Part shown: positions 36,844 to 52,570 of the stretch, one piece after another | How the letters are laid out: each line of letters opens with the position of its first letter | Position numbering within the stretch: position 1 is the first letter of the stretch | Origin: Flavobacteriales bacterium | Lineage (GTDB): Bacteria; Bacteroidota; Bacteroidia; NS11-12g; UBA955 | Length of the DNA: 64,000 nucleotides | Direction of reading: 5' to 3' | Assembly: GCA_947463125.1 (NCBI GenBank) | Contig: CANHQZ010000006.1 | Coordinates: 5,243-69,242, forward strand | Translations under genes and position numbers: made by a program | Notes under the pieces: model-generated | Told to the model about the DNA's origin: nothing | Seen by the model: the letters and a program-made list of their open reading frames with translations, nothing else | Database searches by the model: none

Positions 36844-38388
36844 GTGAAACGGTTTCAGGTATTTCTGTTAATGGCTATCTGTGCTATGCCCTGCAGGTTG
36901 TTGGCACAAAATGACCTCCGCGAAGAGAGCATATACTTCCTCATCACTTCCCGCTTTTTTGATGGCGATCCCTCCAACAACCGCCCTACCGAATGGTGCA
37001 GTTGGTACAAAGGCGCTTCCAATAACATCAAAGATACCCAGGATGTTACGTGGCGCGGTGATTTCAAAGGACTGGTGCGCAAACTCGATTACATCAAAGA
37101 CCTGGGCTTCACCGCCATCTGGATTACCCCCATCGTGCAAAACCGCAGTCCGCTCGATTACCACGGCTACCACGCCTGGGATTTTAACAAAGTAGATCCC
37201 CGCCTGGAATCGCCGGGCTATACGTTCAAAACCGTGATAGACTCCGCCCACGCCAAAGGCATCAAAATCTTTTTGGATGTGGTGTTGAACCATGCAGGCC
37301 GGTATGGTGTGAAAGGCCGTGCCGAAATCAAATACAATACCGATCCCAACCAGCCTTGGGGCAAAGACAAAAACGGCAAAGCCCTGGCCGATAACCCCAA
37401 CTGGCAATACGATGGCATGACCGCCAATCCCCTGGATGGCAAAATATGGAGCCGCTCCAACCTGGCCAAAATGCCCGCACCATATAACAGCAACCTCGCT
37501 GCCTACAACTGGCCCGGCATGGAAAGCTATGTAAACACGAGCGATGGCAAGTGGTACAATAAGTCAGGAAACGGCTTTGCACAGGGCTATGACGATACTA
37601 CTAACCTCTATTACCGTGCCCTGGCAGGCGACACCCCCGATTTTCTGACCGGCGGCGACAGTGTGCGCAACTACCTGTTTCAGGCCTACAAGAAGTTCAT
37701 AGATATGGGCATTGACGGCATGCGCCTGGACGCCGTGAAGCATATGCCCAAGCGCGATGTGCTGTGGTTTGTGGATGCCTTTAAAAAGGTGAATCCCAAC
37801 CTGATGGTATTTGCCGAAGTGGCCCAGAAACGCCACGAGCTGCACCAGATTGAAGAAATCAACCCCCACTGGTACACCTGGCGGGGCAAAACAGGCAGCT
37901 CTGCCAACAGCGGCATTGCGGTACTGGATTTCTTTGCCATGGGCACCTTTCACCTGTTTGGCAAAGGCGAGGCGTTTGCCGGCGTAAAAGCCGCCGACCG
38001 TTACGATTACCTCTACGCCGATGCCGGCACCAACGTGATGTTTCTGGACAACCACGATTTTGGCCCCAACAACGACTGGAACCGCCGTTACGACGGCTCT
38101 CCGGAGAACCTGGCAGCGGCCCTGAACTTCATGTACACCTGGCGCGGACTGCCCTGCGTATATTACGGTACCGAAATGCAGTTTAAAAAAGGCGCCTACT
38201 GCGACATACACAGCGCCAACGACATCAATAACTCCATAGACCTCACCGGCAGGGCCTATTTTGGCAACGACATTGCCAATGCGCCCAACCACAAGGTATA
38301 CCAGCACCTGCGGCGGCTCAATGCCATACGCAAGGCGATACCGGCCCTGCAGAAGGGCAGCTGGCGCTGGGATGGCACCTCTGATTGA
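36844..38388 (+). CDS. GH13 alpha-amylase, catalytic portion (ORF ends at an in-frame TGA)
   Basis: Signal peptide VKRFQVFLLMAICAMPCRLLAQ. GH13 regions I-IV are DVVLNHAG, GMRLDAVKHM, VFAEVAQ and FLDNHD. Ends WRWDGTSD-TGA at 38386-38388. Confidence 0.9.
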   Translation: MKRFQVFLLMAICAMPCRLLAQNDLREESIYFLITSRFFDGDPSNNRPTEWCSWYKGASNNIKDTQDVTWRGDFKGLVRKLDYIKDLGFTAIWITPIVQNRSPLDYHGYHAWDFNKVDPRLESPGYTFKTVIDSAHAKGIKIFLDVVLNHAGRYGVKGRAEIKYNTDPNQPWGKDKNGKALADNPNWQYDGMTANPLDGKIWSRSNLAKMPAPYNSNLAAYNWPGMESYVNTSDGKWYNKSGNGFAQGYDDTTNLYYRALAGDTPDFLTGGDSVRNYLFQAYKKFIDMGIDGMRLDAVKHMPKRDVLWFVDAFKKVNPNLMVFAEVAQKRHELHQIEEINPHWYTWRGKTGSSANSGIAVLDFFAMGTFHLFGKGEAFAGVKAADRYDYLYADAGTNVMFLDNHDFGPNNDWNRRYDGSPENLAAALNFMYTWRGLPCVYYGTEMQFKKGAYCDIHSANDINNSIDLTGRAYFGNDIANAPNHKVYQHLRRLNAIRKAIPALQKGSWRWDGTSD

Positions 38389-38394
38389 AACGGC

Positions 38395-39201
38395 GTGGGC
38401 TTTGTGCGACGGTTTAATGGTACCGATGTGGCGGTGGGGCTGGCCAAAGATGGCAGCGTAAACTTCAGTTTTAGCGGGCTGAACAACGGTACCTACCGCG
38501 ATGCGGTAAGCGGAAGGGAAGTAACCGTGAGCGGTGGAACCCTCAATTTTACGGTAGAACCCAGCAGTGCGGGCATCTATGTGCTGAACGGCCCCGGCCG
38601 CATCGGCAACCCCGGTGATGGCTATTTTCAGGGTGGTAGCAATGGCGGCAGCACCCCGGCTTCTGTGGAGTATGTTCCCGTGAATCCCCTGCCAGGGCAA
38701 ACCCTGAAGGTGATATACAATGGTTTTCTGGCCTCGGAAAGCAAGGTGGTAATGCACCACAGCTGGGACAACTGGACGGTGGGTGGTATTAGCGATGCCC
38801 AGATGAGCAAGGTGAACGGCAAGTGGGAGGCCACGGTAACGGTGCCGGCCGCGGCGCGTATTAATTTTAGTGCGGCTTTCAACAACGGGGCAGTGCGCTG
38901 GGATAACAACAACAACCAGGATTACAAGACACCATTGGGCAAGCCGGCAATGGGTGTGGCAGGCGTGCAGGCGAAAGGCTTACAGGTATATCCCAATCCG
39001 TCAAACGGGCAATGGATTATAGCGGGGATGCAGGTTAAGGCGGATGCAATAATGGTGCTGGATGCGGCAGGACGCAGGGTGCCTTTTGCTCTGGATCCAC
39101 AGGGCAGGGGCTGGCTATTGCGGCTGCCCGGAGCAAGTGCCGGGGTGTATGTGTTGCACTGGGGCGAGCAGCGCATGATACTGATGAACAGGGCCGAATA
39201 A
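38395..39201 (+). CDS. Amylase domain C + starch-binding-like module + T9SS type-A sorting domain (same frame as 36844-38388, probably its detached C-terminus)
   Basis: Same reading frame as the upstream ORF, 2 codons after the TGA. GFVRRFNGTDVAVGLAKDG...IYVLNG resembles the GH13 domain-C beta-sandwich. HHSWDNW...WDNNNNQDY is CBM-like. The C-terminus LQVYPNPSNGQWII...GVYVLHW is a type-A CTD. Confidence 0.7.
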   Translation: MGFVRRFNGTDVAVGLAKDGSVNFSFSGLNNGTYRDAVSGREVTVSGGTLNFTVEPSSAGIYVLNGPGRIGNPGDGYFQGGSNGGSTPASVEYVPVNPLPGQTLKVIYNGFLASESKVVMHHSWDNWTVGGISDAQMSKVNGKWEATVTVPAAARINFSAAFNNGAVRWDNNNNQDYKTPLGKPAMGVAGVQAKGLQVYPNPSNGQWIIAGMQVKADAIMVLDAAGRRVPFALDPQGRGWLLRLPGASAGVYVLHWGEQRMILMNRAE

Positions 39202-39300: not shown

Positions 39301-39376
39301 GGTTCGGTAGCTCAGTTGGTAGAGCAAAGGACTGAAAATCCTTGTGTCGACGGTTCGATTCCGCCCCGAACCACCA
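39301..39376 (+). tRNA. tRNA-Phe (anticodon GAA), CCA encoded
   Basis: Manual cloverleaf. Acceptor GGTTCGG/CCGAACC is 7/7 paired. D arm GCTC-AGTTGGTA-GAGC. Anticodon arm AAGGA-CTGAAAA-TCCTT. 5-nt variable loop. T arm GACGG-TTCGATT-CCGCC has one A50:C64 mismatch. Discriminator A plus CCA. Confidence 0.9.
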
Positions 39377-39530: not shown

Positions 39531-39591
39531 GATTGGTTAACGCAAAGGGCAAAAAATCTATGTGTCGTCGGTTCGATTCCGTCCGAGAGCC
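39531..39591 (+). pseudogene. Degenerate tRNA-Phe-like remnant (D-loop to 3' acceptor; non-functional)
   Basis: Aligns by eye with tRNA-Phe positions 13-73 and shares an identical 13-nt block cggttcgattccg. The anticodon loop is mutated (caaaaaa versus ctgaaaa), the anticodon stem no longer pairs, and no complementary 5' acceptor strand is present. Confidence 0.5.
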
Positions 39592-39600
39592 TTAACAGAA

Positions 39601-40083
39601 TTACACACTCGGAAACTTCGGATACGGAATAAATCCTGCGGCAATATTGATAAGGGCCGGGGCAATCACAAAAGCCAGCACAATAATAATGATGGCATGG
39701 GTCCAGGCCAGCTCTACATTATTTTTGGTTAATTCCACATCTTCGTTTTCATGGGTAAGCATACCCACCACCAAGTAACTCAATCTGAAAAAGATGAGCG
39801 AAAAAACCCACATGCCGGCAAAGTAGCCCACGGCATAGGTGATGGCACTGGAAAGCTGGTTGTTCGAAATGAAGAATGTGAATGCCTGGTTCGTTAGATC
39901 GGCCACATGGTATAGGTTTATTCCTGCCATAAGCAGGGAAGAAACAAACACAATCAGCACCGCCTGATTTTTGGTAGGACTCGAGAATTTGGCGAAAAAG
40001 CGCTGTTGCAGTTTGGTAAATCCGAACATGTATCCGATTCCCAAAATCATCAGCACCAGTAGGTTCATTAATCCTGTATTCAT
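39601..40083 (-). CDS. Small polytopic membrane protein, DUF350-like (operon gene 7)
   Basis: 160 aa with 4 hydrophobic helices. LTHENEDVELTKNNVELAWTHA resembles the DUF350 (E. coli YjfL-type) core as I recall it. Not verified. Confidence 0.55.
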   Translation of the reverse strand: MNTGLMNLLVLMILGIGYMFGFTKLQQRFFAKFSSPTKNQAVLIVFVSSLLMAGINLYHVADLTNQAFTFFISNNQLSSAITYAVGYFAGMWVFSLIFFRLSYLVVGMLTHENEDVELTKNNVELAWTHAIIIIVLAFVIAPALINIAAGFIPYPKFPSV

Positions 40084-40099
40084 AGTTGTTGTATTATTT

Positions 40100-41008
40100 T
40101 TATCTGATAGGTACTACTTCCCAGTTTTTAAACATTTTCCAAACCGGAGCGCCCAGTTCGGCAACATTGTTGCGCTGAGTGCATTCCCAGGCATAATAGC
40201 GTTTTCCGCTGCGCATATCCCTTACAGAAAGGTCTCTGTAGGGCGGGTTGGGAACACATACGCCCAGCATGGCATGGTGCCCGGCCTCTACCTGCCCCAT
40301 CAGCATTTCTGCATCAAATCCCATGTTCAGATATTTGAGGATGGCCATGGCAAAAAGGGCTTTGGTATCGCAGTCGCCGGCCCCGTTAACTGCATATTCC
40401 AAAGGGGAATACACAGCAAATGGTTCCACATTGTCGCAACAGCCGTAGGGATATGGTTTTGGCTTGCAATCCTGTGGTGGTCTGCCTCCGCTGCCGCAGG
40501 GTTCCTGGCCCCAGGTAATGTAAGTGTAATTGAAATTCTGTGCGCTTGAAACCACCATTTGCATGGCTTGCCGGTAATCCAGTTTTTGCTCTTCAATGAT
40601 GTTGCGGTATCCCTCCACCATGTCTTTAAGGCCGGCCCTGTCATGCCTGAACATACCCGCCCAGCAATTAGGATCCGGTGACTGTTTCAAACGGTTTTCA
40701 CGAGCCGATTTATAGGCTTTTTTGGGAACGGTAAACTCGAGTGTATAGGTTTTGCCGTCAAAGGATTCCCATTTCCAGGTTCTTTTAATGGTGCCGCCTG
40801 TGTCCTTGTCCTGCCCATTGTCATCCTGTTCTTCCGCTTCCTGTCGGGCAATTTTATTCAAAGAGTCTTCTTCCAGATGTCGGCGGGTGAGTTCGTTTTC
40901 ATTAAACAACCCCAAATCCGATTTCAGGAAAGACAATACAATCAGCAAAACAATCAGCGCCCAAAACAACAGTTGGGAAACATTGAAATATTTCTTTTCG
41001 CGGGTCAT
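40100..41008 (-). CDS. Membrane-anchored transglutaminase-like (papain-fold Cys-His-Glu) protein (operon gene 6)
   Basis: N-terminal TM VSQLLFWALIVLLIVLSFL. C-terminal blocks GAGDCDTKALFAMAILKY, GHHAMLGV and YYAWECT parallel the transglutaminase-core pattern G-x-C-x-x-fA / HAW-x-ev / W-x-x-DpT. Paralog of 44918-45940. Confidence 0.6.
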   Translation of the reverse strand: MTREKKYFNVSQLLFWALIVLLIVLSFLKSDLGLFNENELTRRHLEEDSLNKIARQEAEEQDDNGQDKDTGGTIKRTWKWESFDGKTYTLEFTVPKKAYKSARENRLKQSPDPNCWAGMFRHDRAGLKDMVEGYRNIIEEQKLDYRQAMQMVVSSAQNFNYTYITWGQEPCGSGGRPPQDCKPKPYPYGCCDNVEPFAVYSPLEYAVNGAGDCDTKALFAMAILKYLNMGFDAEMLMGQVEAGHHAMLGVCVPNPPYRDLSVRDMRSGKRYYAWECTQRNNVAELGAPVWKMFKNWEVVPIR

Positions 41009-41943
41009 TTTTGCTCTGTCACAATTTGCCGACGGGCTTCATTTGAATATTTGTTGAAATACAATTTCATGTCTTTAATTTCCGTAAAAATAACATGACA
41101 GTATTTCTGCGTAATCAAATAATGATAGGTGGTTTTGTTGATTTCATGGAGTGCAAGTTCCTGCACATACGCGCCGTGTCTAACCTCCTGGGAGCGGTAT
41201 ATAATCAACAGGGGAATCATATAAATGGCCAGTACCATGATGTCCATCCACAACTTCCAGTTGCCCAGCCCCGAGGCCAGCGCATCAAAGGTGAGCAGCA
41301 AAGAATTTGCGTTGACCAAAATAAAAGGCTCATCAGGGTCGGGGGTTAGAATGTACTTGTAGGTCCAGTCTTCCGGCGGAAGTACCTGTTTCAGGTCGGC
41401 CAGTGCCATGTTGATTTGCTGGCTGAACATCAGTGTTTCCAGTCCGTTGGCAAATATTACGGCGAGCAGTGCCATCACAAATACCCGCACGGCAATGGTG
41501 AACAGGTTGCGCGGGGCATTGGGATTTACATCGATTTTGCTGCGCAATTTGTCTTTGGCGGTAACCGCCCAGCCTTTCAAAACCTCATCTGCATGCTGAT
41601 AAGCGGTTCCATCAAGCGCATACAAATTATGTTCACGGTAGTGGTTTTCATGTTTGGTGTGATAATGCGCAAGGGTACTGCCTTTCAGATCCAGGCCTGT
41701 CATTAGAAACAACCTGTACAGATTAAAAACAACTGCCCCGATAAATAGGCCTACCCCGATGGCAATAAGCCAGCTGTGGAAGAGTATGAGTGCATAGACG
41801 GTGGCTGAAACTGCGCTGATGAGACCAACAACCAACAGCATAAGCGAAATACCATTGAAAATGAATATCTGCCGCTTAACCACATCTGCAGGCAATTTCT
41901 GCATGATATCGCTGTCTATTCCTATTTGGTCGCTTAGCCGCAT
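41005..41943 (-). CDS. Polytopic membrane protein, divergent DUF4407-like paralog lacking the coiled coil (operon gene 5)
   Basis: GAVVFNLYRLFLMT and FANGLETLMFSQQIN align with IIFNLDRFIVSS and ISAPLEVYIFQKEID of the 42944-44119 product. About 5 hydrophobic helices. The stop overlaps the next start by 4 nt (ATGA). Confidence 0.55.
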   Translation of the reverse strand: MRLSDQIGIDSDIMQKLPADVVKRQIFIFNGISLMLLVVGLISAVSATVYALILFHSWLIAIGVGLFIGAVVFNLYRLFLMTGLDLKGSTLAHYHTKHENHYREHNLYALDGTAYQHADEVLKGWAVTAKDKLRSKIDVNPNAPRNLFTIAVRVFVMALLAVIFANGLETLMFSQQINMALADLKQVLPPEDWTYKYILTPDPDEPFILVNANSLLLTFDALASGLGNWKLWMDIMVLAIYMIPLLIIYRSQEVRHGAYVQELALHEINKTTYHYLITQKYCHVIFTEIKDMKLYFNKYSNEARRQIVTEQK

Positions 41944-41958
41944 TTTTTTATTTCAACA

Positions 41959-42930
41959 TTATTGCTGTGGGCAAAACAGGGTGTACTTCCATTTGGTATC
42001 GCTGCTGCCGCCGGTCACCCGCACTTCACAGTAGTCGTCTTTGTTGTACTGAAAGTCAAAAGAGATGGCTCCGCAGCATTTGGCGGCATTTTTCCCGCCT
42101 ACAAAACCGTTGACATTGCCTTGCACCTGTTTGGTTGATGCCACCAGGTTGCCTTCATAGAATACTTCCAGTTTATCGGGCACACTTTCCATGTCGTATT
42201 GTATCACAACCCTTCCGGACTGATTGCCGAGTATGTGCTTTTTCTCGGTAATACCGCGCCCCCCGGATTTGGCTGCCTGGCTGCATCCCATGGTGTTGTC
42301 GCCGTTTAGGCTGTCAATTTGCTTGCGCAACCGTGCCAGTTCTTCCTGACAATCCTTGCAATTGTTCAGTCCCAGATTACAGCCGCTGGGATTGCAGTTT
42401 CGGAGTAAAAGCAACAGCAACAGCAGCAAAAGCAACCATTTCAGAATATCCCATAATTTAGACAAACAGCCCTTGAATTGAGGGAATATGGGCGGTCTGT
42501 CGGGATTGGGCGGTTCCGGTGCAGGTGGTGGTGTTGGGTCAGGGGCATTGGAAGGTACCTTGATTTTTCCTAAAAAAGTGCCTTCCACAATGCCGTAGGT
42601 TTTTCCGTCAATTTCCCATGAATCCTTTACCCGTGCGTCTTTTATGATAACCTGTTCGAAATCGTAAACGATTTTTTCCTGTATATACTGCTTGTTGCCC
42701 GGATGCAGCTGAATGTTGGTAACGTTATACAGGTACAGGGCATCGCGGTTCAGGTGGTCTTCCGGCTTGAATTCTTTCAGCGGAACGATGTCGTGTAATT
42801 CCCCGCGGTACAGGCGCACATGGTGTTTATCGGGGCCCGGCATGGGCTGTCCGTCCACCAGGGTGCTGCCCTGATCGGTAAAGTAATTACCACTGAAGGT
42901 GCCCTGAACAAAAAGAAATGGAAGCGACAT
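41959..42930 (-). CDS. Bitopic orphan protein: N-domain / Pro-rich linker / poly-Leu TM / Cys-rich beta-domain (operon gene 4)
   Basis: 323 aa. PDPTPPPAPEPPNPDRPP, then LKWLLLLLLLLLLLRN, then NCNPSGCNLGLNNCKDCQEELARLRKQIDSL, and a C-terminal beta-rich domain with 4 more Cys. No family recognised. Confidence 0.55.
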   Translation of the reverse strand: MSLPFLFVQGTFSGNYFTDQGSTLVDGQPMPGPDKHHVRLYRGELHDIVPLKEFKPEDHLNRDALYLYNVTNIQLHPGNKQYIQEKIVYDFEQVIIKDARVKDSWEIDGKTYGIVEGTFLGKIKVPSNAPDPTPPPAPEPPNPDRPPIFPQFKGCLSKLWDILKWLLLLLLLLLLLRNCNPSGCNLGLNNCKDCQEELARLRKQIDSLNGDNTMGCSQAAKSGGRGITEKKHILGNQSGRVVIQYDMESVPDKLEVFYEGNLVASTKQVQGNVNGFVGGKNAAKCCGAISFDFQYNKDDYCEVRVTGGSSDTKWKYTLFCPQQ

Positions 42931-42943
42931 GCAGCCGATTTAC

Positions 42944-44119
42944 TTATGCTTGGTTATCGGGTTTTACGAAAGAGGCCGGGTCTTTCTGAATATCATCTTT
43001 TTCCTGTTTGGCAAACAGGGTAATGGCTTCTTTGGCATTTTCCTCTTCCTTCGCATTCTGGTGTTCCACAATGGCAATAATGCGTTTGGGGTTGTAGAAG
43101 CCTTTCATGGTGTGCAGCTTGTTATTTTCGTCGATGATATGCTCGCGGTTGATGCCCTGCTTGGTTTCCAGAATCTGGTTCACGTTTTCACTCATATAGT
43201 CATAGGGCGATTTGATGAGCATCAGTTTCAGCAGCACCGGTGCAATTTCAATAAACACAAACATCAGGCGAATCATCCATGCAGGGACGGAGGATCCGGG
43301 AATGGCATGGAGGGCCAACAACCTGTCCAGCAAACCATGTGAAGAGTTATTAACGTTGCTGAGTTCTTTGATTTTGGCTGTTTTTTCATCATCATATACC
43401 TGCAGTTTCTTATCAAGGTCAGCGATTTTATTTTTCCGTTCATCTATCCTGCCCATTACTTCCGTGGCCATACGCTTGAATTCCTCGCATTTGGGTCCAC
43501 ATCCGCCAAATTCTGTGGCGTTTTCTTTGGCAGCACGCTTTTGATAATCTTCCCTCTCTTTTTCAAGGTTTCTAATTTCTTCTTCCAGCAAAGCCTTGTC
43601 TTTATTGAGTTTATTGAATTCCGGTGATTTGGTATAAATATCTTCAATTTTCTTAATCTCGGCTTTTTGTTCTTCCTGGTCCAGTTTGTAAAACTGCTTG
43701 TCAATTTCTTTTTGAAAAATATAAACCTCAAGGGGTGCTGATATGGTAAAGCCCAATATCATGGCCATGGCCAGACGCGGGGTAGCATTGCCCAGTTCTT
43801 TGAGGGTGATGGTGTCTGTTCCATCGCCTTTGCCGGTGCTTGACACGATAAAGCGGTCCAGGTTAAAAATAATGGCGCCCCACAGCAATCCTACGGGAAT
43901 GGCAATGGCCACATTTTCAAAGATGTAGTTGATGGCAAAAAACATGGAAAGGCTGGCCAGAATCCCCGTGGCCAGCACGATGCCTCCAATACCTACGTAC
44001 TTTACATGATCGGCATAACTCGAATATTTTAAAATATCCTTGTCTGCACCGGCGCACCACCACAAAAATCGGGTGGCCCCTTTTGCCGGTTTGGCTGAAT
44101 AGTCTACATGTTCATTCAT
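42944..44119 (-). CDS. DUF4407-like membrane protein with long central coiled coil (operon gene 3)
   Basis: FLWWCAGADKDILKY...GIGGIVLATGILA...LLWGAIIFNLDRFIV matches my recollection of the DUF4407 N-terminal consensus. About 130 aa of Lys/Glu heptad-like sequence (EEQKAEIKKIEDIY...LEEEIRNLEKEREDYQKR) follows, then another TM (MIRLMFVFIEIAPVLLKLMLI). Confidence 0.6.
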   Translation of the reverse strand: MNEHVDYSAKPAKGATRFLWWCAGADKDILKYSSYADHVKYVGIGGIVLATGILASLSMFFAINYIFENVAIAIPVGLLWGAIIFNLDRFIVSSTGKGDGTDTITLKELGNATPRLAMAMILGFTISAPLEVYIFQKEIDKQFYKLDQEEQKAEIKKIEDIYTKSPEFNKLNKDKALLEEEIRNLEKEREDYQKRAAKENATEFGGCGPKCEEFKRMATEVMGRIDERKNKIADLDKKLQVYDDEKTAKIKELSNVNNSSHGLLDRLLALHAIPGSSVPAWMIRLMFVFIEIAPVLLKLMLIKSPYDYMSENVNQILETKQGINREHIIDENNKLHTMKGFYNPKRIIAIVEHQNAKEEENAKEAITLFAKQEKDDIQKDPASFVKPDNQA

Positions 44120-44135
44120 GATGTATAATTATTTT

Positions 44136-44918
44136 TTATTGTTTGATTGTGTTGGAATAGTCGGTTTCGTTTTCGTTAAAGAAATGTTTGATAGCATTGT
44201 ATTTGGTGGTGCTGTAGTTGTATACAGCGAGTATCCGTCTCTTGTCCAGTGCGGTATGCAATTCACGTCTTTTATCGTTGCGCAGTGCCACCGGCTCCGG
44301 GTTTAGGTGGCTGACATTCGGTCCGATGAGGGAATTCCTGCTGCCAACGATGGGTTGGTCTTTGGTGAAACGCCTGTTTTGTGGCAGCGATTCAGTTAAG
44401 GGCTCCGTGGCCAGTGTCCTGTTGTTTCCGGTGGTGACCAGATCTCCCAGCGGTGCCACATCCAGGTGGTACAAGTCACGGTCCGGGATGCGTATGCCAG
44501 CAGTTACGGTTTTGCCGTTAAATCCTGTGGCGGTAAGGGTATATTGCGGCTGTGAAGCGTCAATGATAACAGTGGCAGCATTTCCGTTCAGTGACTTTCC
44601 AACCGGATGAATGTCAATGTTTTTTGCCCCTGTTACTTTCCATATTAAGGTTGCAGCGCAACCATCAATAAATATGCCTTCACCGGCAACCTCAGCATAT
44701 AGTTCGGCTCCCTGCCGGTCTTTGCCTACATACACATGCGGCGAGGATTCCAATTCAAAGAATTCAATTTGCAACGGCTGGGGTTTCATCAAATGCAGAA
44801 TGTATCTTTTAATGAATGATGCATAGGGAATAATGATCATGCAGGCAGCCACCAGCAGAAAAAGCAGCAGTTGTGTGCTTTTATCGAGTTCGCTGAGCCA
44901 TTCAAAAAAACTATACAT
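44136..44918 (-). CDS. Single-pass orphan membrane protein with beta-rich ectodomain (operon gene 2)
   Basis: TM TQLLLFLLVAACMIIIPYASFI followed by a Thr/Gly/Val-rich, Ig-like-looking region (TLIWKVTGAKNIDIHP...YTLTATGFNGKTVTAGIRI). The start ATG shares 1 nt with the upstream stop (TAATG). Confidence 0.55.
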   Translation of the reverse strand: MYSFFEWLSELDKSTQLLLFLLVAACMIIIPYASFIKRYILHLMKPQPLQIEFFELESSPHVYVGKDRQGAELYAEVAGEGIFIDGCAATLIWKVTGAKNIDIHPVGKSLNGNAATVIIDASQPQYTLTATGFNGKTVTAGIRIPDRDLYHLDVAPLGDLVTTGNNRTLATEPLTESLPQNRRFTKDQPIVGSRNSLIGPNVSHLNPEPVALRNDKRRELHTALDKRRILAVYNYSTTKYNAIKHFFNENETDYSNTIKQ

Positions 44919-45940
44919 TATACCAGTGGTCTAATCTCTGTTAATTGAAAAGAAACCCAGTCAAAACTGCCGATGGCGCTGGGTGCGGTGGTTTCAAGCA
45001 GAAGGTAAGATTTGCCGTTGTGAAGGATGCTTTCTCCTGAAATTTGTAGGTCAGATACGGCCGCCATGGCATGGGCACCATTGCTTCTGCTGTGAGAAGA
45101 CTTTACCGTACAGCGCACAATGACAATGTTTTCCTTGGGTATGAGGTGGGAGAGGATGGATGCAAAAAACAGCGATTTGCTGTCGCAATCGGCATAACCC
45201 AATACAAAGCTTTCGGGCGGAAGGCTCAGTCCGTAATAATACCATTCTTCGGAATCGAAGTTGGGCTGACCGTAGGGAATAAATTGTATAAAATTCAGCG
45301 CGGCCTGCACCCGGTTAAAATAGTTGTCTTTGTTGTGTGCCGATAATTGTTCTTTCAGGTCTGCGGCAATTTTGCCTGTGAGCGAATCGTACTGATGGAT
45401 TAACTGATGATAAGCTACCCCAAAATTGTTTTCATCCTCATAAAACCACCCGTTGCTGTTAAAATGAAGCTGTATTTGTGCCGATGTAACATTGGGGGCT
45501 ATTCGAAATCCATCAGGCGATACTTCCACTACACTGCGCGACATTCCAAACGTGTCAGCCTGCCGCGATGTTTCTACCGGTTCCATTACAATGTGAGACC
45601 GTCCCCTGATTTTTTGAATCAGAGGATATTCATACACAAAGGAAGCACTGTTGCCTTCCAGGGTGCCTTTGATAAAATGCTGGTAGGACCCATATTCCAC
45701 CGGAGGCCTGCGGTATTCCTTTGTTTTGGTTTTGTGCTGGGTCAGAAATTCAATGAGGGTTAAATGTTTGTCCGGAAGATATTCTGAAGCACCTCCTGAT
45801 TTGTATTGCATTTCAAAGCCAGCCAGGTAGAAAACCAGAAATAGGCAGAGCAGAGGAATGACATACAAGCTGGCCATGAATTGAGATAGAGGGTAGTAAG
45901 GTTGGCAATAATATTCAATAACTTCCGTAAATGAAAACAA
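44918..45940 (-). CDS. Membrane-anchored transglutaminase-like (Cys-His-Glu) protein (operon gene 1)
   Basis: TM ASLYVIPLLCLFLVFYLAGF. Blocks GYADCDSKSLFFASILSHL, GAHAMAAV and YLLLETT are paralogous to 40100-41008. The track start is TTG 45940. ATG 45877 (MASLYVIPLL...) is an equally plausible start. Confidence 0.6.
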   Translation of the reverse strand: MFSFTEVIEYYCQPYYPLSQFMASLYVIPLLCLFLVFYLAGFEMQYKSGGASEYLPDKHLTLIEFLTQHKTKTKEYRRPPVEYGSYQHFIKGTLEGNSASFVYEYPLIQKIRGRSHIVMEPVETSRQADTFGMSRSVVEVSPDGFRIAPNVTSAQIQLHFNSNGWFYEDENNFGVAYHQLIHQYDSLTGKIAADLKEQLSAHNKDNYFNRVQAALNFIQFIPYGQPNFDSEEWYYYGLSLPPESFVLGYADCDSKSLFFASILSHLIPKENIVIVRCTVKSSHSRSNGAHAMAAVSDLQISGESILHNGKSYLLLETTAPSAIGSFDWVSFQLTEIRPLV

Positions 45941-46042
45941 AAAGTACTATTTAATTCATTATACTGTTTTTTGAAGTTTTTATTTATAAAATATATTCTA
46001 TTTTTTAATATTTAAATATTTAATTTATTGCATTTCTGACTT

Positions 46043-46594
46043 TCAATTTATGATTTTACAGTTATCCGTTTTTAACATTTCATGAAGTTGAACGGCTGTA
46101 AATTGCAATAAATCCCCCTTCAGTGTTTCCCTTTTCTGCTTCGCATTTTCCCTAAGCCATTTCCCCTCACAAAACCTCCTTAGTTCAGTCTCATTTTGCA
46201 ATAGCAGTCCCGGAACCTCTTTTAAACTACCATCGTCGTTTTTGGCTACCATGGTGAAATAGCAGGAGTTGGTGTGTGTGGATTGACTGGTGCGGGGATT
46301 GAAGGCTTCCACCCGCATTCCGATAATCATGCTGGTTTTGCCAACATAGTTTACAGAAGCTTTCACGGTAACCAAATCTCCAACCTCCACCGGTGAGAGA
46401 AATTCCACACCCTCCACTGCCACCGTAACCACATAGCTTCCGCTGTGTTTTGTAGCACACACATAGGCAACTTTATCCATGATGGATAACAAAACACCTC
46501 CGTGCACTTTTCCTCCGAAATTAGCATAGGAGGGAATCATAAGTTCTGTATAGATGGTTTCAGATTCCTGAATACTTTTCATTTTAACAAACAT
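46043..46594 (-). CDS. Acyl-CoA thioesterase (hotdog fold)
   Basis: ELMIPSYANFGGKVHGGVLLSIMDKVAYVCA and VTVAVEGVEFLSPVEVGDLVTVKASVNYVGKTSM are typical of YciA/Acot-type thioesterases. Confidence 0.8.
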   Translation of the reverse strand: MFVKMKSIQESETIYTELMIPSYANFGGKVHGGVLLSIMDKVAYVCATKHSGSYVVTVAVEGVEFLSPVEVGDLVTVKASVNYVGKTSMIIGMRVEAFNPRTSQSTHTNSCYFTMVAKNDDGSLKEVPGLLLQNETELRRFCEGKWLRENAKQKRETLKGDLLQFTAVQLHEMLKTDNCKIIN

Positions 46595-46640
46595 AGCATA
46601 AAATGAACATATATAGCGGACATGTTTTTCTTATATTCGC

Positions 46641-47990
46641 ATGATGGGTGTTCAAATTCCTGAAGTGCAAAGCGCCATTATTAAAGTAACCTCTGTGTTT
46701 GCATACAAGCCGGAAGATGTTGTTAAATTTAGAAAAGCCGGTTATAAAGATGCTCCAATAGGAGATCATACAACTGACTATGATGATGCATCAACCAAAT
46801 CTTTTTATCGCGATAAATATTATCGTGAATATTATAAGATGATGCTGGTTAGCGAGGGCAATGGAGCCGGCATGACGGCGCTCAGGCGTGATCTTCCTAT
46901 CAAACTGAATATTTCGGATGATTGGGGAAAGTATCATTTAAAAGATTTGAGTTGCGATTGTCAGGATCTTTATCTTTTTAATCATGGAATCGGTATTTTA
47001 TCATTGTCCTTTAATATCGGAAAAATTAGTTTTCAGGAACTTAGCAATGTGATTTTTGTTCTTAGACTATTCGAATCGAGAATTAAGCAATCGGATAATA
47101 CAGAAATTGCATTTCATCAATTTATTTCAAATCAAATACTGGAAGGCATTGCCCTCCGCCGCACCGATGCTAAAGACAATGGCGATGTGGGGATTTCGGA
47201 TGACTATAGCGGGTCAAAGTTTAAGATATATTCAATTATCAATTCAGATCAGTCTGAAGAAAAAAGGGAAAAGTTACTCTATGAATTAGGAACAGGGTCT
47301 AAAATCGGTATCGTCGGCAGCAATGATTATCAGGCCCCTGCAACTGTGTATTATAATGAGTTAATGAAATCCGGTATCAGACTTTTTAATAATTACACGG
47401 GTCTTGCCCTGCAAGATTCTTTTACTGTTATTGGTCATAATATTTATGATTCGGAGAAAAGAGACATTAAATATAATACCTGGAACAAGGTTTATTTTTC
47501 CATATATATTTATAATTTGTACATACGATACAATGTGTTTCGTTATAATACCATTTTCAATGATGATGAAATTAAAACCAGAGATGAATTTCAAAATTTC
47601 ATCAATCGCTATAACATGTCTCACATATCCTTTGACTTTCTGCCCAATATCCTCCACCGCAAAATTCACGATGCCTTGGGCATTGATGAAGAAGTAGCCC
47701 ATTTTGAAAAACGCCTGGCCAATCTGGCAACCAGTATTCAGGAAAAGCAGAGCAATCGGCAGCAATTTCTGTTGTTCGTGGTTTCTGCAATTACAGGCCT
47801 CTCGTCATACAAAGAAATTTATGCGTTTTTAGAAATGATTAGATTGAAATTGCAATGGGATATGATGCCGTTTTATTCGATTCTAATTTTATTTACATTG
47901 ATTGCCGGATTTTTTGTGTTGTCATGGCTCTATCCGCATCAGTCCAGGAAACTGAAAAAAAGGGCCAGAATGAAGTTGAATAAAGGATGA
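46641..47990 (+). CDS. Orphan protein with large soluble N-domain and C-terminal helical hairpin (2 TM), CorA-like architecture without a GMN motif
   Basis: 449 aa with AT-rich codon usage. The C-terminus has FLLFVVSAITGLSS and FYSILILFTLIAGFFVLSWLY followed by a basic tail RKLKKRARMKLNKG. No motif recognised. Confidence 0.5.
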   Translation: MMGVQIPEVQSAIIKVTSVFAYKPEDVVKFRKAGYKDAPIGDHTTDYDDASTKSFYRDKYYREYYKMMLVSEGNGAGMTALRRDLPIKLNISDDWGKYHLKDLSCDCQDLYLFNHGIGILSLSFNIGKISFQELSNVIFVLRLFESRIKQSDNTEIAFHQFISNQILEGIALRRTDAKDNGDVGISDDYSGSKFKIYSIINSDQSEEKREKLLYELGTGSKIGIVGSNDYQAPATVYYNELMKSGIRLFNNYTGLALQDSFTVIGHNIYDSEKRDIKYNTWNKVYFSIYIYNLYIRYNVFRYNTIFNDDEIKTRDEFQNFINRYNMSHISFDFLPNILHRKIHDALGIDEEVAHFEKRLANLATSIQEKQSNRQQFLLFVVSAITGLSSYKEIYAFLEMIRLKLQWDMMPFYSILILFTLIAGFFVLSWLYPHQSRKLKKRARMKLNKG

Positions 47991-48003
47991 TGAGGTTGGG
48001 CAA

Positions 48004-48477
48004 TTGGAGTATTTAGTTACTGATAAGGCAAGAGAACACTGCAAGCAGCACTTTAGTGATTCGGAAAAATCAGGCAGTAAGTTTAATGCTGCGGTTTTTC
48101 CAAGTTTAGACAGCATTTTGGCTGCAATCAAAAGCATTGAGCCCAAACGAATTGTTGAGCAAAGCTCAGGCAGGTTTGCCCATGTTTATGAATTACATGG
48201 ATATTGCGGCTGGTCCGGTGTAGGAAAACGGGCCGACTACAACAGAATTGAAACCGAAATAAGAAACGGATTTATTACAGAATTTGCCGTTGTTGAATCC
48301 CTGCCCCAAACCCGGCTGTTAACAGTCATTTCGGAATTTATTGATGGTGCAAATACCTTAATCACCCTTTTCCCGGGCGATTATGCGCCACCGTTTCCTT
48401 ATGATGGAATGATGCCGGAGGAAAAAGAAAAAGCAGTATTGTTTTGGCAAGAAAATATATTGTTAAAAATGGGCTGA
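48004..48477 (+). CDS. Orphan 157-aa protein
   Basis: TTG start 13 nt after the upstream stop. No recognisable motif. Ends 10 nt from the convergent STAND gene stop. Confidence 0.4.
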   Translation: MEYLVTDKAREHCKQHFSDSEKSGSKFNAAVFPSLDSILAAIKSIEPKRIVEQSSGRFAHVYELHGYCGWSGVGKRADYNRIETEIRNGFITEFAVVESLPQTRLLTVISEFIDGANTLITLFPGDYAPPFPYDGMMPEEKEKAVLFWQENILLKMG

Positions 48478-48487
48478 TTAAAACCGA

Positions 48488-51400
48488 TTAGTGTAACTTC
48501 ATCCATTCAGGCAATTCATTCTCTCGTCCTAATTTTTTTGCAAGCTTTTTTGATTTTTTAATGATTCTTAAATGAAGTCCGTCGCGCTTTTGGTTATCCT
48601 CATTCTTTTTGTTCAATTCTGCTGCCTGTAGGTAATAAGAAAGTGCATCGTTGGGATTTTCCCATGCCACATAACAATTTCCAATCTTGTCCATAAACAA
48701 CGCATCGTTGTGTATGTCAAATCCCTGATTGTAAACATCAATTGCGGCCTGATACTGCCCTGCCTTAAGGTAAGAGTCGCCCAAATCAGACAATATTTCA
48801 GATACATCTTTGTGCTCGCGTCCCAGGTATTTTATTTTCAGATCAAGGCTCTTTTTATAAAATTCTATGGCTTTTTCATAGTCTCTTTTCTTTCTCCATG
48901 CAGCGCCAATATTTCTGTAAGATAACGCGAGAGAAAAATGATCTGTGCCAAAGTTTTTTAGTTTAATTCTCAGGCTCTCTGAGTACCACCTCAGGGCCTC
49001 GTCATATTGGCCCTGGTCGGCCCATAAAAACCCAACATTGTTGTAAACGGGAGCTAACGATGTGTTGTCTGCACCCAGTACTTTTAACTTTATGTCAATG
49101 CTCTTTTCGTAGTAGGAAAGTGCTTTTTCGTGTTCGCCCTTTTTTCGCCAAACCGCGCCAATATTGCTGTAGGAGGCTGACAGGGAAGGATGCATTGCGC
49201 CAAGCCGTTTTAATTTTAAATCAACACTTTTGTGATAGAATTCCAGCGCTTTGTCCAGTTCTCCTTTTTTTACTTCCGCTAACCCTATGCTGTTCAACAA
49301 TCCCGCTACCGATGGGTCATTATCTCCTAAAACCTTTAACTTGATATTCAAGCTTTTGTGGTAAAAAATAAGTGCCTGGTCATAGTTTCCGTATTTCGCC
49401 ACACATCTGCCTAACAGGCTTAACAGGTTATGGTCATTTTCAATCAGGGCTTGTGATTTATGTATTTCGGTCAGATAATATACAGCCTGGTTTTTGTCAA
49501 AGCAGGTAATTATTGCTATCAATCCCAGCCAAATTGATTCTATATGCGTGAATTGATTTTGCTTCATTAATTCCGTGAGGAATTCCTTGCGCAGTGCGTG
49601 CAACCGCAATTTTGTCAGGTTTTTATCCAGTTCGAGCAGCGCTTTCCAGTCATTTGCCGTTCCGTGCTGCATTAACTTGTTTAGGGTGTTCGCTACTCCG
49701 AAAGTTTTTAAATACAGCAGCGAAGGTTTAATGCAAATGTCAAGATAGTCATCACCGGCATCAATAAGCTGCGTAGTAAGGGTAAAGTTGTCATCCAAAG
49801 CCAGTTCACATAGCATGGCTTCCAGCGCAAATCGCTGCAGCTTTGAACCCTGTTTGAGTAGGTCTTTGGCACTTTTTAAATGAATGGCAGGTTCTTGTTT
49901 GCGTAAGTGTGCGCCCAGCATATAAAGCAATGCGCCCTCAACCGTGAATGACAGGTAAGCGTTCAGGTCTTTGGTATAGCGACTTAACCATCCCAGGTTT
50001 TTAAGACGGGGATATGGATCATTTTGAACATCTGAGTTAAAGTATGGTTTCAGCCTTTCCGAATTGATCAAATCGTCCAGTAACAGTTCATTTTCCCCCT
50101 TTTCCCATACCGCTTCTACCAGCAGTTCCATGAATACTCGTTCTTTTGCAGAAAAGGATTCCAGCCAGTCGCGCCATATATTAAGATGCCTGTTTCCGCT
50201 TTTGGGCAGTGTTTTTTGGTGGTAGGTTTCAAGGAAAATTCTTAATACAAGCGGGTTGTTGATTTGATTGTAAATGGAACGGTCAAAATCTGCTATATCT
50301 GAAAATGTAAACCGTGGGTTGAATTTGTTTTTATGTTTCCGGGTGTAAATGTTCCAGGCTTCCTGCATTTCTGCCATGTTCATGGCAGTGAGCCAGTTGA
50401 TGAAAACCGCCAGACCATTTTCGCCTTCCGGATTTTCTCCGTACAACAATTCCTGTTCGTTTTCATTTAAAGTAAACCGCTGTATGTCTGCACCCGTATT
50501 GGCCCTGCTGGCAACAATAAATTTTAGCCTTCCGGCATCAAATATTTTACTGATGGCAAGGATTTCCTCCCATACATCTTCGGCGTTGATTGCCTCATTC
50601 AATCCGTCTATCAGGATGGTGGTTGGGGTGTCCTGGGTTCCGGCAAGTGCCTGATAATTTTCAAGCCCCTCCCTGGGGTTGATATTGAGGATAAAGGCAA
50701 GATGCTCTGTCAACGAGTTCTTCTCCATCCTGCCTGCACGAATTAGCAGGCAAGGCAGGTTCAGTTTTGAATATTGTCTTTGTATTTCAACCAGCAGATT
50801 GGTTTTTCCGCTGCCGGCCTCTGCTGCGATAAAAAAAATGTTGGCAGCAGAGCCAATCCATTCATGCAGTTTTTGCTCAATCTCTTTGCGGTTAATGTAA
50901 ATTTCCGGAAGAATCTTTTTTTCATGGATAAGGTTGTCTGTGAGCAATTTGTTTTCTTCGGCTATCCTGCTGATAAATACCTGCTTAGTGAATTCTGCAG
51001 GTGTATAATTGGTTTCGTTTTGCTTTTCACGAAGCAGTAGGTTTAGCTTGTTAAGAGTCTTTCCTGAAGTCTGTTTTTCAGTGCCCTCCGGACTGAAAAA
51101 TTTGATGGTTTTACCGGTGTGGGATTCGTAAATGAAAATTTGCTCCTTGTCTTCTTTGGAAAGAGAAACTTCACCCGGGACAATATAAAATGGCAGGATG
51201 TCAAACTGCTCTTGCTTTTGGTTTTCAATCCAAACCCTTGCAGGCTTTTGTTGCCCCTTTTCAACTGTGTTTATTTCTGCCGATTTCAGTAAATAGGTTT
51301 CACCGTGCTCGTGCTTGTACATGGGAGCAGGCTCTGATTTTAATAAGTCTGTCAGAAGGTATTTAAAAACAGGATAATATTCCTGCCAGATATTCTCTGA

Positions 51401-52006
51401 AACCGAGTCAGGCGGGGTCAGCGAATGGCCTATGTGCCTGTTGCGAAAATTAATAAGCATCCCAATACCTGTGGCTTCCTGTTTCTTCAATTGAACATCT
51501 CCGTTTATATCCGTGTATTCAATTTCTCCTTTGAAGAGGGTTCTTTTTTTGCCGGTTTCAACCCGTTCGTAATGGTTGAAGATTCCACTGTCAAAAAAGG
51601 TATGTTGCCTAGTCTTCAGATACTTAATGGTTTCTCGGATAAATTCATTCCACGAGCCAAAGGAAGGTTCGGCAATGGTTTTATGAAACAGAGCGACCAT
51701 GTTTCTATCCCTTAACGGGCTGTTGAAAAATTCAGAAGCAGTAATAAGGCCTATATATTTCAGGTAGTTGAGAAATGTATCTTTTAATAAATTGATTTTC
51801 CTCCAGGGATTTTGTTCCTCCAGGGCCCGTTTCAGTGGGTCGGCAATGACATACGGCAATTCCCGGATAAGTTGTATTTCCTCTTCGCTGAATGCAACAG
51901 CGCTAACCAGCGGCGTGCCGCATACGGGGCAGTTTTTTATTTCAGGTGGAAACTCTGCCTTTGTGCCGGCCATTAAGCAGTTTTGATTTTGGCAGCGAAA
52001 ACCCAT
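48488..52006 (-). CDS. STAND NTPase: N-terminal Zn-ribbon + unknown about 380-aa domain / NACHT-type P-loop / C-terminal TPR array
   Basis: CQNQNC...CPVCGTPL zinc ribbon. Walker A FFIAAEAGSGKTNLL. NACHT-style Walker B TTILIDGLNEA. Sensor-1-like KFIVASRAN. At least 6 tandem 42-aa TPR pairs of the kinesin-light-chain type (YDQALIFYHKSLNIKLKVLG... EKALSYYEKSIDIKLKVLG... EKAIEFYKKSLDLKIKYLG). Confidence 0.8.
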   Translation of the reverse strand: MGFRCQNQNCLMAGTKAEFPPEIKNCPVCGTPLVSAVAFSEEEIQLIRELPYVIADPLKRALEEQNPWRKINLLKDTFLNYLKYIGLITASEFFNSPLRDRNMVALFHKTIAEPSFGSWNEFIRETIKYLKTRQHTFFDSGIFNHYERVETGKKRTLFKGEIEYTDINGDVQLKKQEATGIGMLINFRNRHIGHSLTPPDSVSENIWQEYYPVFKYLLTDLLKSEPAPMYKHEHGETYLLKSAEINTVEKGQQKPARVWIENQKQEQFDILPFYIVPGEVSLSKEDKEQIFIYESHTGKTIKFFSPEGTEKQTSGKTLNKLNLLLREKQNETNYTPAEFTKQVFISRIAEENKLLTDNLIHEKKILPEIYINRKEIEQKLHEWIGSAANIFFIAAEAGSGKTNLLVEIQRQYSKLNLPCLLIRAGRMEKNSLTEHLAFILNINPREGLENYQALAGTQDTPTTILIDGLNEAINAEDVWEEILAISKIFDAGRLKFIVASRANTGADIQRFTLNENEQELLYGENPEGENGLAVFINWLTAMNMAEMQEAWNIYTRKHKNKFNPRFTFSDIADFDRSIYNQINNPLVLRIFLETYHQKTLPKSGNRHLNIWRDWLESFSAKERVFMELLVEAVWEKGENELLLDDLINSERLKPYFNSDVQNDPYPRLKNLGWLSRYTKDLNAYLSFTVEGALLYMLGAHLRKQEPAIHLKSAKDLLKQGSKLQRFALEAMLCELALDDNFTLTTQLIDAGDDYLDICIKPSLLYLKTFGVANTLNKLMQHGTANDWKALLELDKNLTKLRLHALRKEFLTELMKQNQFTHIESIWLGLIAIITCFDKNQAVYYLTEIHKSQALIENDHNLLSLLGRCVAKYGNYDQALIFYHKSLNIKLKVLGDNDPSVAGLLNSIGLAEVKKGELDKALEFYHKSVDLKLKRLGAMHPSLSASYSNIGAVWRKKGEHEKALSYYEKSIDIKLKVLGADNTSLAPVYNNVGFLWADQGQYDEALRWYSESLRIKLKNFGTDHFSLALSYRNIGAAWRKKRDYEKAIEFYKKSLDLKIKYLGREHKDVSEILSDLGDSYLKAGQYQAAIDVYNQGFDIHNDALFMDKIGNCYVAWENPNDALSYYLQAAELNKKNEDNQKRDGLHLRIIKKSKKLAKKLGRENELPEWMKLH

Positions 52007-52570
52007 TGTGCGAAGTTATATTTTAAACGCTGAAATAGCTCTTTCGTTTTAATCAGGGATTTTGTGCATTCTTTTATTCTCTTTCAAATAGTGCTCAAAA
52101 GGTTATTTCATCGCATTCACACGTGTATCTTTATGGGCAACATACTGCAGTGTTGATCGGCTTAATCCTAAAACAATGTTTTTCATGACTTTATGTTGAT
52201 TGGGGATTCAGTATGTTGGCTGCAATTGCTGTAAAATCCCCATTAATTCGCTGTTTTGGTGGGCGTTTTCAGATTATCACTACCCAATTTCCATTCAGCT
52301 TCATTGATAAAATCAGGTTTTTGTCAAGTATAGTTATCCACATTTTCAAAAAATTTCTTTTTTCAATACTGAAGTATCCGAGTTTTAATAAAATTACCTG
52401 AAAATCAATGTTAATAGGCTAATAAGATTCGATTATCTGAATTTATTGTGATGTTTTTGTTGTGGATAAACGTGGTGGTTGCCCCGTAATATACAAAAAA
52501 AATGAAGACAAGGCAAACACAATTGCATTTTCTATGTTCATTTGTGTACATCATTAAAATACATACACGT

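Follow-up and report, generated by a model that had tools for sequence, protein, structure and literature searches.

The seven genes g1 to g7, consecutive open reading frames (ORFs) on the minus strand of a 64,000-nt stretch of DNA from a freshwater Flavobacteriales lineage, are best read, at a little below even confidence, as one operon for an inner-membrane complex that would act on the cell wall through enzymes of the transglutaminase fold. The system lies outside every described kind, and its function is predicted. Throughout, the window is the whole 64,000-nt stretch, and coordinates and comparisons of guanine-plus-cytosine (GC) content refer to it. The parts of the operon, in the order of transcription, are:

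AT-rich spacer upstream of g1, 45878..46042, minus strand: presumed promoter region, with a putative promoter function.
g1, 44918..45940, minus strand: bitopic protein with an N-terminal transmembrane (TM) helix and a C-terminal Cys-His-Glu domain of predicted transglutaminase fold; paralogue of g6.
g2, 44136..44918, minus strand: bitopic protein in which an N-terminal TM helix precedes a conserved domain rich in beta structure (about amino acids 50-150) and a C-terminal motif.
g3, 42944..44119, minus strand: four-TM DUF4407 protein in which a long helical hairpin separates TM3 from TM4; it ends in a small alpha/beta domain.
g4, 41959..42930, minus strand: bitopic protein with an N-domain of about 130 amino acids, a Pro-rich linker, a TM helix, a short coiled coil, and a Cys-clamped C-terminal domain.
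g5, 41005..41943, minus strand: divergent four-TM paralogue of the DUF4407 type, without the long coiled coil.
g6, 40100..41008, minus strand: bitopic protein anchored by an N-terminal TM helix, with a Cys213-His245-Glu275 domain of predicted transglutaminase fold that is predicted to be periplasmic.
g7, 39601..40083, minus strand: four-TM protein of the DUF350 (YjfL) family.

The genes are tightly packed. From g1 to g7, the junctions are -1, 16, 13, 15, -4, and 16 nt, and both a TAATG overlap at 44918 and an ATGA overlap at 41005-41008 can be read from the letters. An earlier note on this DNA had described this packing, and its coordinates, junctions, and two overlaps were all reproduced. That note had also placed a spacer of about 100 bp, extremely rich in AT, upstream of the operon. 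The AT-richness held, with 12.7% GC in 45941-46042 vs 46.3% in the window, but the extent is likely to be different. The TTG at 45940 is unlikely to be the start of g1 because an alignment of orthologues, which begin at the Met encoded at 45877, and the gene callers on near-identical contigs, which give 319 amino acids, both place the start at the ATG at 45877. With this probable start, the spacer would run from 45878 to 46042 and measure 165 bp at 20% GC. A hydropathy scan counted 1, 1, 4, 1, 4, 1, and 4 hydrophobic helices for g1 to g7, which agrees with the claim that every product has at least one.

Conservation of the gene set as a neighborhood had been set beforehand as a test. The seven products were compared by tblastn with 36 related genomic loci, and about 20 Bacteroidota genomes (L007-L025) were found to have the same seven families in unchanged order, with g1 absent from L022, L024, and L025. 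These genomes belong to Flavobacteriales, Cryomorphaceae, Crocinitomicaceae, Chitinophagaceae, and Saprospira metagenome-assembled genomes, so the order is kept across Bacteroidota families, at identities down to 25-45%. The set varies in that some genomes have no g1 and some have two g4 paralogues. A reduced core was found in L026-L033 and L049-L053, consisting of a small protein, a DUF4407 protein, a DUF4407-like four-TM protein, an optional single-TM wall binder, a g6-like protein, and a DUF350 protein. The pair of g6 and DUF350 genes is the most constant element. A g7-type gene directly follows a g6-type gene in nearly every architecture, and at some loci the match of that gene to DUF350 is weak or missing. 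In Aquimarina sp. 2201CG5-10 (L056 9008-11562), the only isolate genome found, a LuxE gene is followed by a g6-like and a DUF350 gene, without DUF4407; two large TPR/NPHP3-type proteins are encoded about 3 kb downstream. Overall, the distribution is patchy, most occurrences are in freshwater Bacteroidota that have not been cultured, and the flanking genes vary.

The subunits do not diverge at the same rate. g1 and g2 diverge fastest, with 67% and 69% identity in L009 vs 94% for g3, the most conserved subunit. The identity of g3 is also out of step with the rest when L012, L013, and L014-L017 are compared with L019 and L020: in L012, g3 has 73% identity vs 31-44% for the others, while the values in L019 are 49% for g3, 58% for g7, and 46% for g1. 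As far as sequence identities can tell, this discordance points to one of two things, a g3 under extreme constraint or recombination inside the operon.

The presumed enzymes are g1 and g6. The earlier note had called them paralogous, transglutaminase-like Cys-His-Glu proteins. Their paralogy was confirmed by BLASTP (3e-7) and by comparison of the two family profiles (hhalign 97.9%, E 4e-13, 183 columns). In the alignment of g1 orthologues, D251-C252-D253, H290, and E316 are invariant. Across 40 family members including g1, at about 20% identity, the invariant residues in g6 numbering are Q157, Y161, P202, D212-C213-D214, H245, Y271, E275, and T277, which gives the invariant family motif D-C-D...H...E-x-T. 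An AlphaFold model of g6, built with 41 homologues, reached a mean predicted local distance difference test score (pLDDT) of 83 and a predicted template modeling score (pTM) of 0.75. In this model, C213 is at the N-terminus of helix 213-227, H245 is within strand 243-251, and E275 is directly after strand 270-274. A Cys at a helix N-terminus, a His and an acid by strands, and a conserved triad are the marks of the transglutaminase-like/papain-like superfamily fold, and g6, as modeled, has all of them.

When the model was compared with the PDB by Foldseek, the leading 20 or so matches were all transglutaminase-fold cysteine enzymes, but they were weak. They include PeiP, LapG, the Cytophaga protease 3isr, PeiW, TG2/FXIII, CPR-C4, NAT, and Rad4. 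The best E was 5e-4 (PeiP, probability 0.97), LapG matched at 7e-3 (probability 0.93), and TM-scores were between 0.25 and 0.47. Sequence searches gave no named family. With E values as high as 1 allowed, neither Pfam nor NCBIfam matched g1 or g6 to Transglut_core, BTLCP/DUF920, or any other named family of this superfamily, and their family profiles found nothing relevant among PDB sequences. Thus the paralogy, the fold, and the motif in the earlier claim stood, while membership of a named sequence family did not. The model suggests that g1 and g6 represent a transglutaminase-fold family outside Pfam. An exhaustive hidden Markov model (HMM) search with the g6 family found 1,212 representative clusters at E ≤1e-3 and 197 at ≤1e-30; a word-indexed search had given 49 only. 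No g6 relatives were found in IMG/VR.

Fusions in g6 relatives provide information on topology. In many of these relatives, which are 500-670 amino acids long, 1 or 3 TM helices are preceded by an N-terminal domain, either a DnaJ J-domain (E 1e-20 to 1e-24) or a Peptidase_C1 domain of the papain family (L025 12791-14638; P0185, P0229, P0232, P0241, P0244, and P0290). Because the J-domain must be cytoplasmic and the number of TM helices is odd, the transglutaminase-fold domain is expected on the outer side of the membrane. Another long relative, P0208, begins with an N-domain of the g4 type (hhalign 77%, E 2e-5), which speaks for g4 and g6 acting together, as one assembly. The J-domain fusions imply recruitment of DnaK to the complex. 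They resemble membrane-anchored J-domain proteins of the DjlA kind, in which a cytoplasmic J-domain is likewise combined with an anchor, whereas g6 of the window has no J-domain. DjlA, for its part, is not known to have a periplasmic enzyme domain.

The link to the wall comes mainly from g4. Both g2 and g4 had been described as orphans, and this held for g2, which belongs to no known family and had no match in the PDB, Pfam, or PADLOC. An alignment of 13 g2 orthologues shows a conserved C-terminal motif, Y-x-F-S-T-x-K-Y-N, and g2 has a weak hhalign match (35%) to the small gene that opens the reduced core. g4, on the other hand, is no true orphan, as most of its relatives are peptidoglycan anchors of the MotB/Pal kind. 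The family alignment keeps the N-domain of about 130 amino acids, the linker, the TM helix, and the coiled coil, while the C-terminal domain is variable. An OmpA C-terminal domain is present in the g4 orthologues of L012, L014, L019, L020, L022, L031, and L032, and in L051 OmpA, LysM, and SH3_3 domains are on one protein. The g4 family profile matched Pal, OmpA, and MotB in the PDB at 1.9e-17, and some of these matches include the TM helix of MotB. In the window, g4 has no OmpA (PF00691) domain and so does not itself belong to the OmpA-like peptidoglycan-binding proteins. Its C-domain (about amino acids 215-323, window 41959-42300) has an invariant Cys at both ends and no relative in Pfam or the PDB; its only match was a weak one to PHROG 26008 (3.7e-6).

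g3, g5, and g7 are the polytopic proteins. g3 is a full member of DUF4407: it matched PF14362 with 216.6 bits (E 6e-64) over model positions 1-291 of 297, well above the gathering score of 31.3. g5 scored 23.3 bits, under that threshold. g3 and g5 are nevertheless related by BLASTP (1e-7) and by their family profiles (hhalign 96.6%, E 6.6e-10 over TM1-TM3), and g5 orthologues in L045-L047 are labeled PF14362 (weakly in L047). The claim that g3 and g5 are paralogous DUF4407-like proteins was therefore correct as to the paralogy and to g3, with g5 sub-threshold in Pfam and linked through profile comparison. g7 had been called DUF350-like, and its score against PF03994 is above the gathering score (31.3 bits vs 26, positions 4-132 of 133), with four hydrophobic helices. 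The AlphaFold model of g3 (pLDDT 73.5) is all-alpha up to its end, with a TM1-TM2 hairpin, TM3 continuing into a hairpin of helices 136-200 and 209-256, TM4, and an alpha/beta C-domain. Its invariant charged residues are E131 in TM3 and E291 and K298 in TM4. No significant fold relatives of g3 were found in the PDB or BFVD, only generic long-helix proteins (TM domains of ABC exporters, YaxA; TM-scores ≤0.27).

Scans of the seven products against Pfam, NCBIfam, PADLOC, and PHROGs named two families only, DUF4407 and DUF350. They contained no ATPase, transporter, nuclease, or regulator domain, in line with the earlier note, which had seen none of these. PHROGs gave weak matches only, g4 to phrog_26008 (function unknown, 3.7e-6) and g2 to phrog_2155 (0.0096). 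Searches of the accessible literature for PF14362, for DUF350 with transglutaminase, for YjfL, and for J-domains with anti-phage systems returned no mechanistic description, and no mechanistic account of DUF4407 was found there. To our knowledge, no DUF350 protein has a known function.

Taken as a wall-directed complex, the operon would work as follows. The two DUF4407 paralogues, g3 and g5, and the DUF350 protein g7 would form a membrane core, from which the helical hairpin of g3, about 7 nm long, would most likely reach into the periplasm. g4 would be the strut that ties the complex to the wall, with its N-domain in the cytoplasm and its coiled coil and wall-directed C-domain in the periplasm on the other side of the TM helix. 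g1 and g6, anchored at their N-termini, would present periplasmic Cys-His-Glu domains to the wall. There they may cleave peptide bonds, as an endopeptidase or isopeptidase, or transfer them, as a transamidase, in the stem peptides of peptidoglycan or in a wall-attached protein. The cytoplasm would gate this activity by way of the membrane core, with the N-domain of g4 as the input here and the J-domain or papain fusions as the input elsewhere. Two of the Foldseek matches of g6 are cell-wall isopeptidases (PeiP and PeiW) and one is a periplasmic protease (LapG), in line with this reading. The wall-binding relatives of g4 and the fusions of g6 together fix the topology and implicate the cell wall. 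From the duplicated ectodomains and scaffolds, the earlier note had suggested a multi-subunit envelope machine, and this idea is strengthened by the relatives with fused or swapped subunit domains.

Several points weigh against a wall-directed complex. The structural matches of g6 are weak, and sequence methods tie g1 and g6 to no named transglutaminase or peptidase family. As the window g4 has no OmpA domain, wall binding by the window operon is extrapolated from its relatives. The side of the membrane assigned to the g3 hairpin comes from a single source, the charge bias in the paralogue g5. Finally, the distribution is patchy, and STAND/TPR, Avs2-like, CorA-like, and type I restriction-modification (R-M) genes are found as neighbors. 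This patchiness and these neighbors fit an accessory or defense role better than housekeeping wall metabolism.

A more specific proposal, which we regard as tentative and on balance doubtful, is that the DUF4407 pair, the MotB-like g4, and DUF350 are an unrecognized, wall-anchored, trans-envelope complex for signaling or energy coupling that switches on membrane-tethered wall enzymes of the transglutaminase fold. Such a complex could conduct ions, given the invariant Glu and Lys residues in the TM helices of DUF4407, and could be coupled to DnaK in the J-domain variants. The g4 family resembles MotB, Pal, and TolR in having a single TM helix, a linker, and mostly an OmpA-like domain, and in being encoded beside polytopic proteins with charged TM residues. 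It differs from MotB in its additional cytoplasmic domain of 130 amino acids and in the lack of a conserved acidic TM residue; the Asp in the TM helix of the window g4 is not kept in the alignment, and the window protein has no OmpA domain. The operon is also unlike MotAB and TolQRA-Pal in that no MotA, ExbB, or TolQ domain is present, and the only match to ZorB models is in the OmpA part of a relative. An ion-driven 5:2 stator of the MotAB or Zorya type (also ExbBD, TolQR, and GldLM) was considered and rejected, since there is no MotA_ExbB or ZorA match and no conserved TM Asp in g4. The tol-pal cluster of E. coli also carries a 4HBT thioesterase gene, ybgC, and the gene for a TPR protein, cpoB.

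The genes next to the operon bear on the alternative explanations. Upstream of g1, they are:

Acyl-CoA thioesterase, 46043..46594, minus strand: 4HBT protein of the Acot/YciA type (PF03061 7e-19; PDB acyl-CoA hydrolases 1e-40).
w448, 46641..47990, plus strand: protein of 449 amino acids, CorA-like in topology; its N-terminal part is large and soluble, and two TM helices lie at the C-terminus.
ORF of 157 amino acids, 48004-48477.
STAND/TPR protein of 1,172 amino acids, 48488-52006.

The thioesterase gene recurs beside the system in at least 11 Flavobacteriales-type loci (L007, L009, L010, L031, L033, L043-L046, L048, and L051/52), in four relative positions and varying orientation, and a link to the system is possible. 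w448 gave a weak match to a CorA-like PADLOC model (5.9e-5) and no match in Pfam or the PDB. Its homologues are found beside the system in L007, L029, and L019/L047, and it is possibly an accessory component. Neighbors of 469-484 amino acids in L043 and L048 were considered as further w448 homologues and rejected, as they are not homologous. Like w448, relatives of the STAND/TPR protein recur near the system in other genomes. GC content in 46000-53000 is lower, 0.36-0.43 vs a window mean of 0.46.

These neighbors are part of the case for anti-phage defense, an explanation we consider rather unlikely, though to be taken seriously. The complex would then sense a disturbance of the envelope or the cytoplasm in infection and kill or arrest the cell by permeabilizing the membrane (DUF4407, DUF350), by degrading the wall, or by both. 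This overlaps with the wall-directed complex in mechanism and differs from it in biological role. Patchy occurrence in mostly uncultured freshwater Bacteroidota and variable flanks are consistent with it, as are the defense-type genes near the system: type I R-M in L049, an Avs2-like STAND gene directly downstream in L045 (PADLOC 1.7e-17), an NPHP3_N STAND gene in L051, and the STAND/TPR and CorA-like genes of the window. In Roseivirga pacifica (L035 6355-16132), a lone DUF4407 gene lies between vWA/kinase-like genes and genes for an N6/N4 DNA methylase and a UvrD-like helicase, a context that resembles a defense island. The fast divergence of g1 and g2, which are presumed to be exposed, also points this way. 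Against this, in PADLOC-DB 2.0 the best E for the seven proteins was 0.0058 or worse, to unrelated models, and distant variants had no match beyond the generic OmpA part of ZorB. No relatives were found in IMG/VR, the PHROGs matches were weak, and the system was not found on plasmids. The GC content of the operon is the same as the genome average. In Flavobacteriales the system is beside the same housekeeping-type thioesterase, and this constant neighbor suggests stable inheritance.

The tRNA genes at the 3' end of the operon were considered in the same light. ARAGORN found one tRNA-Phe, intact, at 39301-39376. As the earlier note had reported, a decayed copy lies next to it, near the operon: 43 nt of the 3' half at 39542-39584, with 84% identity where 0 such copies are expected by chance. 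The copy ends about 10-17 nt from the stop codon of g7 and is 218 nt from the intact gene. A genomic island bounded by tRNA-Phe repeats was rejected because the repeat occurs just twice and on one flank of the operon, and the partial copy is also present in L007, the closest relative (about 14530-14590). With no third copy in the window, the decayed tRNA-Phe is probably not an attachment site or island edge and is probably an old tandem duplicate.

Another explanation, quite improbable in our view, is an inside-out switch like LapD/LapG, in which periplasmic proteases release or process a surface protein, such as an adhesin or cargo of the type IX secretion system, on a cytoplasmic signal; the substrate would not be peptidoglycan. 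LapG (BTLCP family) is a periplasmic protease controlled from the cytoplasm through the inner-membrane protein LapD, and it is among the top fold matches of g6. Like LapG and the pseudomurein endoisopeptidases PeiW and PeiP, which cut isopeptide bonds of the cell wall, g6 (and, by homology, g1) has a Cys at a helix N-terminus, followed by a His and an acid by later strands. Cytoplasmic input domains are fused to g6 relatives, and genes for large PKD/CHU_C surface proteins are found near the operon in the window. However, g1 and g6 differ from all three enzymes in that the acid is a Glu in E-x-T, the Cys is between two invariant Asp residues, and the proteins are membrane-anchored. Their partners are DUF4407 and DUF350 instead of LapD, and they have no detectable sequence similarity to Transglut_core, DUF920, or any Pfam family. 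Neither DUF920 nor a HAMP-GGDEF-EAL receptor was found in the operon or its relatives, so the likeness to LapD/LapG is one of fold only. No conserved gene for a candidate substrate accompanies the operon in the loci examined, and the wall-binding domains of g4 relatives indicate peptidoglycan.

Envelope modification by acyl or polyamine transfer is very improbable. Here, the enzymes would transfer acyl or aminoacyl groups, and the task of DUF350 would be to carry a small amine or acyl compound through the membrane. In other settings, DUF350/YjfL is tied to PspA operons and polyamine-amide enzymes, an acyl-CoA thioesterase recurs as a neighbor, the LuxE acyl-protein synthetase gene of Aquimarina is directly before the g6-DUF350 pair, and arylamine N-acetyltransferases are among the fold matches. 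All of this support is circumstantial. CoA thioesters are absent from the periplasm, the predicted location of the catalytic domain, and the thioesterase is a common housekeeping type that is a neighbor in Flavobacteriales only. YjfL is like g7 in being a four-TM DUF350 protein, of a family described only in envelope-stress and polyamine-linked operons. In contrast to those operons, no PspA, ATP-grasp ligase, or spermidine-synthase gene is beside g7. That hydrophobic hypothetical ORFs lie in a row by chance, or that the genes are decaying, is suggested by the missing annotation and nothing else; it has next to no probability, as it is refuted by the seven-family order in distant genomes, the invariant motifs, and the intact frames.

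Two other observations were made in the window. An alpha-amylase and a CBM53 are encoded as two ORFs (36844-38388 and 38395-39201), as in the identical L001 (500 and 265 amino acids), whereas L002 has one gene of 771 amino acids. Either the gene is interrupted, or the split comes from an error in sequencing or assembly. Farther upstream of the operon, a rhodopsin gene (52502-53296) is followed by a fused lycopene cyclase/beta-carotene dioxygenase gene (53363-55375; Pfam labels on L001), which together are a cassette for retinal-based phototrophy.

No characterized system holding these genes was found in PADLOC, Pfam, NCBIfam, PHROGs, sequence and fold searches of the PDB, or the accessible literature, where no publication combining these components was found either. 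This had also been set beforehand as a test, and the searches agree with the earlier note, which could match the operon to no characterized system. Conserved membrane operons of unknown function are not rare in Bacteroidota. If the wall-directed complex is correct, this operon would give the first functional context for two widespread domains, DUF4407, which had more than 2,300 matches in one search, and DUF350. The g1/g6 proteins define a transglutaminase-fold family beyond Pfam with about 1,200 representative clusters, and the system points to an undescribed coupling of the cytoplasm to the wall in Bacteroidota. Judging from the J-domain variants, wall processing may be linked to the DnaK chaperone. 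If the more specific trans-envelope complex is real, it would be an envelope-stress or remodeling machine, or a family for anti-phage suicide or defense, widespread in Bacteroidota. If the enzymes remodel or breach peptidoglycan on command, the finding would bear on envelope biology and phage defense in abundant freshwater bacteria and may offer wall-active enzymes.

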